A stretch of DNA of 33,980 bases from a virus (Duplodnaviria > Heunggongvirae > Uroviricota > Caudoviricetes). The stretch lies in IMG/VR virus record IMGVR_UViG_2869970738_000009. One strand, written 5' to 3'. This document shows positions 615 through 1,927 of the stretch, in pieces. The notes beneath the pieces are model-generated. The model was not told the origin of the DNA. It searched no databases and saw only the letters and a program-made list of their open reading frames with translations. The translations under genes were made by a program, and so were the position numbers. Numbering within the stretch: the first letter of the stretch is position 1; each line of letters begins with the position of its first letter.

Positions 615-1140
615 TTACCCCACTTTCTTATGGGGCATACATGGGACACTTTCAGATAGTCTTTTGTTAAGGAGTTCTATCTGTTCGTGATTGTTGTCTT
701 TCATCCATGCTCCGTAAACATTGAATACCATTTGTGCGTTTGTGTGGCCCATCTGGCTTGCGATAAAACTAGGATTAGCTCCAGCGGCAAGTGACCAGCA
801 TGCATAAGTATGCCTGGATTGGTACGATTTTCTGTGTCTCAGACCTGCGCGTTTTAAGATACTTGTCCATGACTCCCTGATGGAGTCAACCTTATAGTGC
901 GGTCCGGAAAACTGCCGCTGTTTTATTACCTGAGGACTAAAAACAAAAGTGCATTTATGCACAGTACTTCTCCCATATTCCCTCTGCTTTACCTCTACAG
1001 AATGTTGCTTTCCAAGCATGGTCATTTCCGCCTGACTTTTAAGAGCATCAATAGCTGGTTGAACCAGATGAATTGTCCTTCCGGTGCCAGCATCGGTTTT
1101 TGGTGGAGTGAATTCGCCAAGTTTTGTATAATTCCTACGG
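615..1140 (-). pseudogene. int: phage tyrosine integrase, C-terminal catalytic part only; N-terminal portion absent at the IS1 boundary
   Basis: Tyrosine recombinase box motifs (LRHRKSYQSRHTYA..., tyrosine in NVYGAW); KTDAGTGRTIHL aligns with the lambda Int beta-hairpin region; reading frame enters IS1 at 1141. Confidence 0.75.
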
Positions 1141-1155
1141 GGTAATGACTCCAAC

Positions 1156-1533
1156 TTATTGATAGTGTTTTATGTTCAGATAATGCCCGATGACTTTGTC
1201 ATGCAGCTCCACCGATTTTGAGAACGACAGCGACTTCCGTCCCAGCCGTGCCAGGTGCTGCCTCAGATTCAGGTTATGCCGCTCAATTCGCTGCGTATAT
1301 CGCTTGCTGATTACGTGCAGCTTTCCCTTCAGGCGGGATTCATACAGTGGCCAGCCATCCGTCATCCATATCACCACGTCAAAGGGTGACAGCAAGCTCA
1401 TAAGACGCCCCAGCGTCGCCATAGTGCGTTCACCGAATACGTGCGCAACAACCGTCTTCCGGAGCCTGTCATACGCGTAAAACAGCCAGCGCTGGCGCGA
1501 TTTAGCCCCGACGTATCCCCACTGTTCGTCCAT
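1156..1533 (-). CDS. insB: IS1 InsB reading frame (transposase made as InsAB' by frameshift)
   Basis: 125-aa ORF identical to the InsB frame of the second IS1 copy. Confidence 0.9.
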
Positions 1534-1577
1534 TTCCGCGCAGACGATGACGTCACTGCCCGGCTGTATGCGCGAGG

Positions 1578-1853
1578 TTACCGACTGCGGCCTGAGTTTT
1601 TTAAGTGACGTAAAATCGTGTTGAGGCTAACGCCCATAATGCGTGCAGTTGCCCGGCATCCAACGCCATTCATGGCCATATCAATAATTTTCTGGTGCGT
1701 ACCGGGTTGAGAAGCGGTGTAAGTGAACTGCAGTTGCCATGTTTTACGGCAGTGAGAGCAGAGATAGCGCTGATGTCCGGCAGTGCTTTTGCCGTTACGC
1801 ACCACCCCGTCAGTAGCTGAACAGGAGGGACAGCTGATAGAAACAGAAGCCAC
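1578..1853 (-). CDS. insA: IS1 InsA
   Basis: 91-aa [43 protein letters not shown]..., zinc-finger InsA. Confidence 0.9.
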
Positions 1854-1927
1854 TGGAGCACCTCAAAAACACCATCATACACTAAATCAGTAAGTTGGCA
1901 GCATCACCCAAATGCTTTATTCATTCT

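Follow-up and report, generated by a model that had tools for sequence, protein, structure and literature searches.

The stretch of DNA analyzed here, called the window below, is the 33,980-nucleotide virus record IMGVR_UViG_2869970738_000009. It is 100% identical to CP026795.1 over both of the stretches that were compared (window 1-13199 in record L006 and window 19755-33980 in record L022), and its position in this source chromosome is CP026795.1:2558118-2592097. Two of its products, of 314 and 626 amino acids, have exact protein matches named Shigella boydii at NCBI, and on this sequence evidence the host of the window is Shigella. What the locus shows is probably the attL end of a lambdoid prophage in decay, of the VT1-Sakai/BP-4795 type, which lies in mlrA (yehV) of the Shigella chromosome.

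The attachment end and the integrase remnant

The window opens with the terminal 24 nt (1-24, reading GTAAGGCAGTATGAC... on the minus strand) of a 1.68-kb IS110-family transposase unit, which abuts nucleotide 600 of mlrA. These 24 nt are the reverse complement of window 30041-30064, the source record L006 continues from them into the full unit, and every E. coli match begins at position 25. There follows an internal fragment of mlrA (25-582, minus strand), which covers nucleotides 44-600 of the 732 in the gene with 98.4% identity to K-12 mlrA by blastn; the product called from it carries the Pfam domains MerR_1, MlrA_helical and MlrA_C. Integration of the phage cuts the 5′ side of this fragment and the IS110-family unit cuts its 3′ side. 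The attL junction lies in the 5′ part of the gene, where the homology to mlrA ends at nucleotide 44 (window 582), and the annotation of VT1-Sakai gives an identical yehV attachment site. Positions 583-614, to which no strand is assigned, are the phage-side DNA of attL and run from the mlrA crossover region to the stop codon of the integrase gene int at 615; they are collinear with the intact mlrA prophage of E. coli SCU-105 (reference L001), and the alignment with K-12 stops at 582. The mlrA gene is broken in three ways, by the phage at about nucleotide 44, by the IS110-family-transposase unit abutting nucleotide 600 and by the absence of nucleotides 601-729.

The integrase remnant occupies 615-1140 on the minus strand, and by protein alignment and Pfam it consists of the stop codon and codons 255-428 of the integrase of the mlrA/yehV phages. 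It is read within an open frame of 179 codons (615-1154, minus strand) that starts from a TTG at 1154, 14 nt inside the IS1 copy which begins at 1141, and the first five codons of this hybrid frame (TTG-GAG-TCA-TTA-CC.) derive from the end of IS1. Residues 6-179 of the frame match residues 255-428 of WP_000063640.1 at 173 of 174 positions, this protein being a 428-residue tyrosine recombinase which adjoins mlrA in many E. coli. The full-length integrase has an Arm-DNA-bind_2 domain (PF12167) at residues 7-70 and a catalytic domain at residues 203-396 by Pfam. From the remnant Pfam recovers no more than the distal portion of the Phage_integrase domain (profile positions 75-165); the remnant begins at residue 255 and has neither the N-terminal arm-binding domain nor the core-binding domain. 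The preliminary description had stated that the frame enters IS1 at 1141 and retains the region of the catalytic tyrosine while the N-terminal and core-binding parts are missing, and had proposed that it be aligned with full-length integrases of mlrA-integrating phages; the alignment places the fragment at residues 255-428, in agreement with that statement.

The catalytic set of the tyrosine recombinases (Arg-I, Lys, (His)-x-x-Arg-II, His/Trp and Tyr) is incomplete in the remnant. By alignment to the structure of the Tn1549 integrase (6en0), Arg-I is R233 of the TGIRHGEL motif and falls in the deleted part, and K268, R363, H386 and the tyrosine region are still present. Judged from its sequence the 174-codon remnant is a pseudogene and no shortened enzyme. 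In a sister strain (PTES01000001.1, L033) an extra IS1 variant, 88% identical, lies within the remnant at about window 955-964 and has a normal duplication of 9-10 bp; this insertion shows that IS1 activity went on at the locus.

Two IS1 copies and the DNA missing beside them

Two copies of IS1, each of 768 bp, are present in the window. The first, IS1-A, lies at 1141-1908 on the minus strand with its right inverted repeat at 1141 and its left one at 1908, and contains insA (1578-1853) and insB′ (1156-1533). The second, IS1-B, lies at 10479-11246 on the plus strand, inverted with respect to IS1-A, and the two are identical at all 768 positions. Both have the canonical imperfect terminal inverted repeats GGTGATGCTGCCAACTTACTGAT and GGTAATGACTCCAACTTATTGAT, and end probes of 27 and 29 nt matched exactly at 1141, 1908, 10479 and 11246 and gave no match in shuffles of the window. 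The insA and insB′ frames (91 and 125 amino acids) are present along with the A6C motif (AAAAAAC) at IS1 position 307, and the identical IS1 genes of L006 give the Pfam domains Zn_ribbon_InsA, HTH_Tnp_IS1 and DDE_Tnp_IS1, so that by sequence both copies look intact. In one other genome, CP026867.1 (L031), IS1-A is longer by about 100 bp near window 1237-1254, and this changes the frame of insB′.

A simple insertion of IS1 is normally flanked by a direct duplication of 8-10 bp, usually 9 bp. The flanks are TTCCTACGG and CAAATGCTT at IS1-A and GTTATTGCG and CTGTCATTG at IS1-B, and no target duplication was found at either copy when lengths of 7-14 bp were compared in the direct, inversion-swapped, composite-outer and inner configurations, all of which have at least three mismatches. 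The strict 9-bp tests gave 5-8 mismatches, and the earlier observation that neither copy has a 9-bp duplication in the direct or the inversion-swapped configuration is thereby upheld. A composite transposon bounded by the two IS1 copies was considered and rejected, since both the outer and the inner flank comparisons mismatch.

Three other insertions within the same 9-kb stretch served as controls. These are an IS911-like copy at 3415-4571 (minus strand, internal deletion of about 92 bp, duplication TCC), a second IS911-like copy of 1,249 bp at 5386-6634 (plus strand, duplication CAG) and an IS2-like element of 1,331 bp at 9024-10354 (plus strand, duplication GCGGT), all of them simple insertions whose duplications are perfect and of the length typical for the family. 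As these neighbours retain perfect duplications, the missing duplication is an anomaly specific to IS1-A and IS1-B. The two IS911-like copies are mutually inverted, and the deletion of about 92 bp in the one at 3415-4571 shortens its transposase ORF.

Comparison with intact prophages accounts for this anomaly, the missing duplications being explained by a gap at each IS1 copy. At IS1-A, window 25-1140 corresponds to 1501-2616 of the SCU-105 reference and window 1909-3300 to its positions 3803-5194, the blocks being collinear and 98.8-99.9% identical; since collinear blocks lie on both sides, positions 2617-3802 of the reference (1,186 bp) have been replaced by IS1-A. The 13 best E. coli matches (SCU-105, 266917_2, which is reference L002, and 11 others) have an identical span of 3,594 bp across the gap. 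The lost 1,186 bp held codons 1-254 of int, the whole 84-codon xisR, the intergenic spacers and 39 of the 44 codons of a small ORF. The first 16 nt of that ORF, ATGAATAAAGCATTTG, remain at 1909-1924 on the minus strand (reference 3803-3818), the rest being deleted, and the first intact phage gene past the deletion is the DUF4222 gene at 1928-2170 (minus strand; Pfam PF13973 and the annotation of the reference). The excisionase gene xis was lost along with the front of int, which is an addition to the earlier reading. Neither the N-terminus of Int, nor xis, nor the deleted 1,186 bp has a counterpart elsewhere in the window by tblastn and blastn, and a relocated N-terminal coding region that could be rejoined to the fragment is likewise absent within the window by these searches.

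At IS1-B, gap arithmetic and alignment show that the element replaces 192 bp which are present in every reference prophage examined, and these 192 bp are codons 3-66 of an ORF of 68 codons. A comparison of the IS1 flanks with related prophages had been proposed beforehand, and its outcome is these two gaps, of 1,186 and 192 bp, each between collinear flanks. The flanks of IS1-B (10468-10478 and 11247-11257) contain an in-register near repeat, TTGTTATTGCG and CTGTCATTGCT, which agrees at 8 of 11 positions; its halves are the stop-codon and the start-codon contexts of the deleted ORF. An imperfect 11-bp duplication was considered here, with one mismatch in the best 9-mer and a null frequency of about 0.4%, and it was rejected because both halves are native phage DNA that lies 192 bp apart in the references. 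The near repeat could be a hint of a microhomology-assisted deletion, or it could be chance.

Three further explanations of the missing duplications bear on these same comparisons, namely that a duplication decayed by point mutation, that the junctions are an assembly artefact, or that an inversion took place between the inverted IS1 copies, and the data refute all three. Against decay, each flank is native phage sequence, and at IS1-A the references have 1,186 bp between the two, which makes the gap a real one; against an artefact, more than 10 independent assemblies have these junctions, among them short contigs which read from int into IS1. The IS1 copies are identical and inverted and in principle permit an inversion, but such an inversion was rejected, since the swapped flanks mismatch and the 8.6 kb between the copies are in the order of the references save for the three simple IS insertions.

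Origin and age of the IS1 junctions

It is background to this comparison that IS1 transposes with a 9-bp duplication and also promotes deletions which start at one of its ends. At both IS1-A and IS1-B the element has been kept, the contiguous DNA is gone in comparison with intact relatives, no duplication is present and the flanks are unchanged, and in these respects both sites are like an adjacent deletion promoted by IS1. They differ from it in that here the end product alone is seen, in a natural genome. Deletions of the gal region, from Reif and Saedler in 1975, are reportedly the classical case of IS1 adjacent deletion. The concept of IS-linked deletion has been reviewed, and missing duplications are there ascribed either to adjacent deletion or to IS-IS recombination (PMC11708052).

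The explanation which we prefer, with a probability of roughly two in three, is insertion of IS1 followed by adjacent deletion at both sites. An IS1 would have inserted in or beside the int-xis module, and later one of its ends would have transposed intramolecularly into nearby DNA, the intervening DNA being discarded. The outcome would be an IS1 which joins, without a target duplication, sequences that in intact phages are separated by 1,186 bp. The second, identical IS1, 8.6 kb away, would have behaved likewise on a smaller scale (192 bp). We infer both the order of events and the one-ended mechanism of transposition. The preliminary description had already pointed to IS1-mediated adjacent deletion, and the two gaps with their collinear flanks agree with it, with the qualification that direct IS1-IS1 recombination gives the same product.

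That recombination forms a separate explanation. Two IS1 copies in direct orientation would have inserted independently at a distance of 1,186 bp, making a 9-bp duplication apiece, and homologous recombination between them would have left a single IS1 that is bordered by DNA of both sites and lacks a duplication. IS1-B would have arisen in like manner from insertions 192 bp apart. IS1 is plentiful in these genomes, a third copy lying 7 kb to the left of the window and the sister strain L033 having gained one within the int remnant, and recombination between IS copies is a frequent cause of missing duplications (PMC11708052). Against this stand the six events which it needs over both IS1 sites, versus four, the requirement at IS1-B for two insertions just 192 bp apart, and the absence of a two-copy intermediate from all of the genomes examined. 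We consider this course unlikely, and adjacent deletion is favoured because it needs fewer events at each IS1 site.

The distribution of the junctions bears on their age. The junction strings at IS1-A are GTTTTGTATAATTCCTACGG joined to GGTAATGACTCC and GGCAGCATCACC joined to CAAATGCTTTATTC. At least nine other Shigella records have both in unchanged form, among them CP001063.1, which we take to be the chromosome of S. boydii CDC 3083-94, and several CP0267xx/CP0268xx chromosomes, and the hybrid ORF of IS1 and int at the left junction is also present on one ENA metagenome contig. Neither junction occurs among 5,426 complete E. coli genomes. The int-IS1 junction was not found in the contigs of species-representative genomes, but this says nothing about its spread, since Shigella is probably represented there by an E. 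coli genome. Presence in at least nine further Shigella records together with absence from the 5,426 E. coli genomes indicates that the deletion is old and inherited, and on this sequence distribution it is an event fixed in a Shigella clade.

A pre-deletion intermediate, with IS1 and its duplication at one breakpoint and an intact int-xis, was found neither in the 5,426 complete E. coli genomes nor among 10 Shigella records which share the junction of the mlrA fragment with the IS110-family unit. This absence would suit a single-step movement in which IS1 arrived together with the deletion and the duplication was never made, as would the repetition of the same pattern at both IS1 copies; one-step events of this kind have been proposed for IS5 and IS481 under the name 'IS-Del' (PMC11708052). 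The lack of intermediates is, however, expected anyway for an old and fixed event, and in the LTEE data all of the IS-associated deletions went back to an earlier insertion with a subsequent adjacent deletion (PMC11708052). We consider a single step very improbable.

There is also a small chance that the two inverted, duplication-less IS1 copies record a less conventional pathway of IS1 and not two ordinary adjacent deletions. The clue is at IS1-B, where a 68-codon ORF has been taken out almost precisely between the two native sequences of the near repeat. Such a pathway could be a microhomology-guided resolution between the IS1-proximal copy of the duplication and a nearby look-alike, or a one-step insertion with deletion (PMC11708052). 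Insertion and adjacent deletion remain our preferred reading for both copies. With them the region gives a clean worked example in which deletions are marked by duplication-less IS1 copies and simple insertions by the IS911 and IS2 copies nearby. The IS junctions of the prophage can be used as stable lineage markers.

Rearrangement, gene content and mobility of the remnant

At the other end of the window the homology to the reference prophages stops at 30040. A second IS110-family-transposase unit (30041-31719, plus strand) stands where the terminase region should begin, inverted with respect to the copy that ends at 24, and it is followed by an IS66-family element (31720-33980, minus strand) with tnpC at 31591-33183, tnpB, and tnpA at 33561-33980, which extends 85 nt past the end of the window. 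To the right of the IS66 element the source genome continues directly with the mlrA stop codon, yohO and yehWXYZ in inverted orientation, and to the left of the IS110-type unit at the start of the window it has yeeX, sbmC and dacD. On this gene order the simplest reading is that an inversion between these two oppositely oriented IS110-type units of 1.68 kb split the locus; sister Shigella genomes have other arrangements of the same locus pieces. The first bases of the IS110-family unit are an IS66-like terminus (GTAAGGCAG...). Each of the two copies is followed by the 3′ end of an IS66-family tnpC, and an oppositely oriented GTAAGCG-like repeat overlaps the stop codon of tnpC (31540-31600). 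The unit may be an IS110-family element inside an IS66 end, or a composite.

Between these ends the prophage retains early-left genes, a cI-like repressor, replication genes, a Q-type antiterminator, a methyltransferase, three tRNAs, a NanS-type esterase and a lysis cassette. Homologues of terS, terL, portal and capsid genes were not found in the window, and terminase, head and tail genes were found neither in the window nor within 6 kb past it. This agrees with the earlier remark that structural genes are missing, the late end running instead into IS elements and then into yohO-yehWXYZ. The attR end, with the 5′ end of mlrA, was not found in the window, in the 7.7 kb to its left, in the 6 kb to its right or in any compared flank. 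A 1-nt frameshift near 18247 divides the replicative helicase gene (17374-18775), and an in-frame stop at 19906-19908 interrupts the DUF968 gene (19081-20067), so that both are further pseudogenes of the prophage.

With no Int, no Xis, no nearby attR, no packaging or virion genes and a broken helicase gene, the remnant would be unable to excise or to propagate alone. The element had been described before as an immobilised prophage, and its gene content (truncated int, lost xis, no attR nearby and no virion genes) points the same way. We infer that it is a locked, decaying and vertically inherited prophage remnant. The Int and Xis of a related prophage could act in trans on attL, only given an attR in the right orientation. 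There is also a small chance that the loss of int and xis was fixed by selection, locking in cargo such as the PmrD-like gene, the NanS-type esterase and the tRNAs. For annotation, prophage-finding software should not count the region as an inducible prophage; the deletion explains the pseudogene status of the integrase gene and has little importance outside annotation.

In the intact relatives of the prophage the int-xis-small ORF module is 97-99% identical to VT1-Sakai (Sp15), BP-4795, YYZ-2008 and JLK-2012, the classical lambdoid phages that integrate at yehV/mlrA. The window resembles the mlrA/yehV lambdoid (Stx) phages in having the same site in the 5′ part of mlrA and the lambdoid order of early, replication, Q, tRNA and lysis genes. 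It differs from them in that no stx genes are present in the window, int is cut, xis is gone, seven IS elements are present, late genes are lacking at the locus, which an inversion has split. Decay and rearrangement of prophages and genes driven by IS elements are well known in Shigella. The present locus is like these in its two IS1, two IS911, IS2, IS110-family and IS66-family copies in 34 kb, in its pseudogenes and in IS-bounded inversions which differ between strains, and no difference in kind was seen. The kind of event is already known and is a textbook outcome of IS expansion in Shigella. A search of the literature for the locus (mlrA, Shigella, prophage, IS1) or for its Shigella genome accessions gave nothing specific. 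Beyond the earlier reading, the present analysis adds the loss of xis, the sizes of 1,186 and 192 bp, the Shigella host, the clade-wide nature of the event and the IS-bounded inversion.

Some smaller features of the retained part, at 14012-14197, 22949-23463 and 23489-23845, were also recorded. By Rfam the Rha/antirepressor region contains isrK and a C4 antisense RNA, and tRNA-Met, tRNA-Arg and tRNA-Arg followed by the sRNA STnc100 lie downstream of the methyltransferase gene. A PmrD-like ORF lies on the minus strand ahead of the gene of the NanS-type esterase. These RNA genes, the PmrD-like ORF and the esterase are typical lambdoid (Stx-phage-like) cargo.
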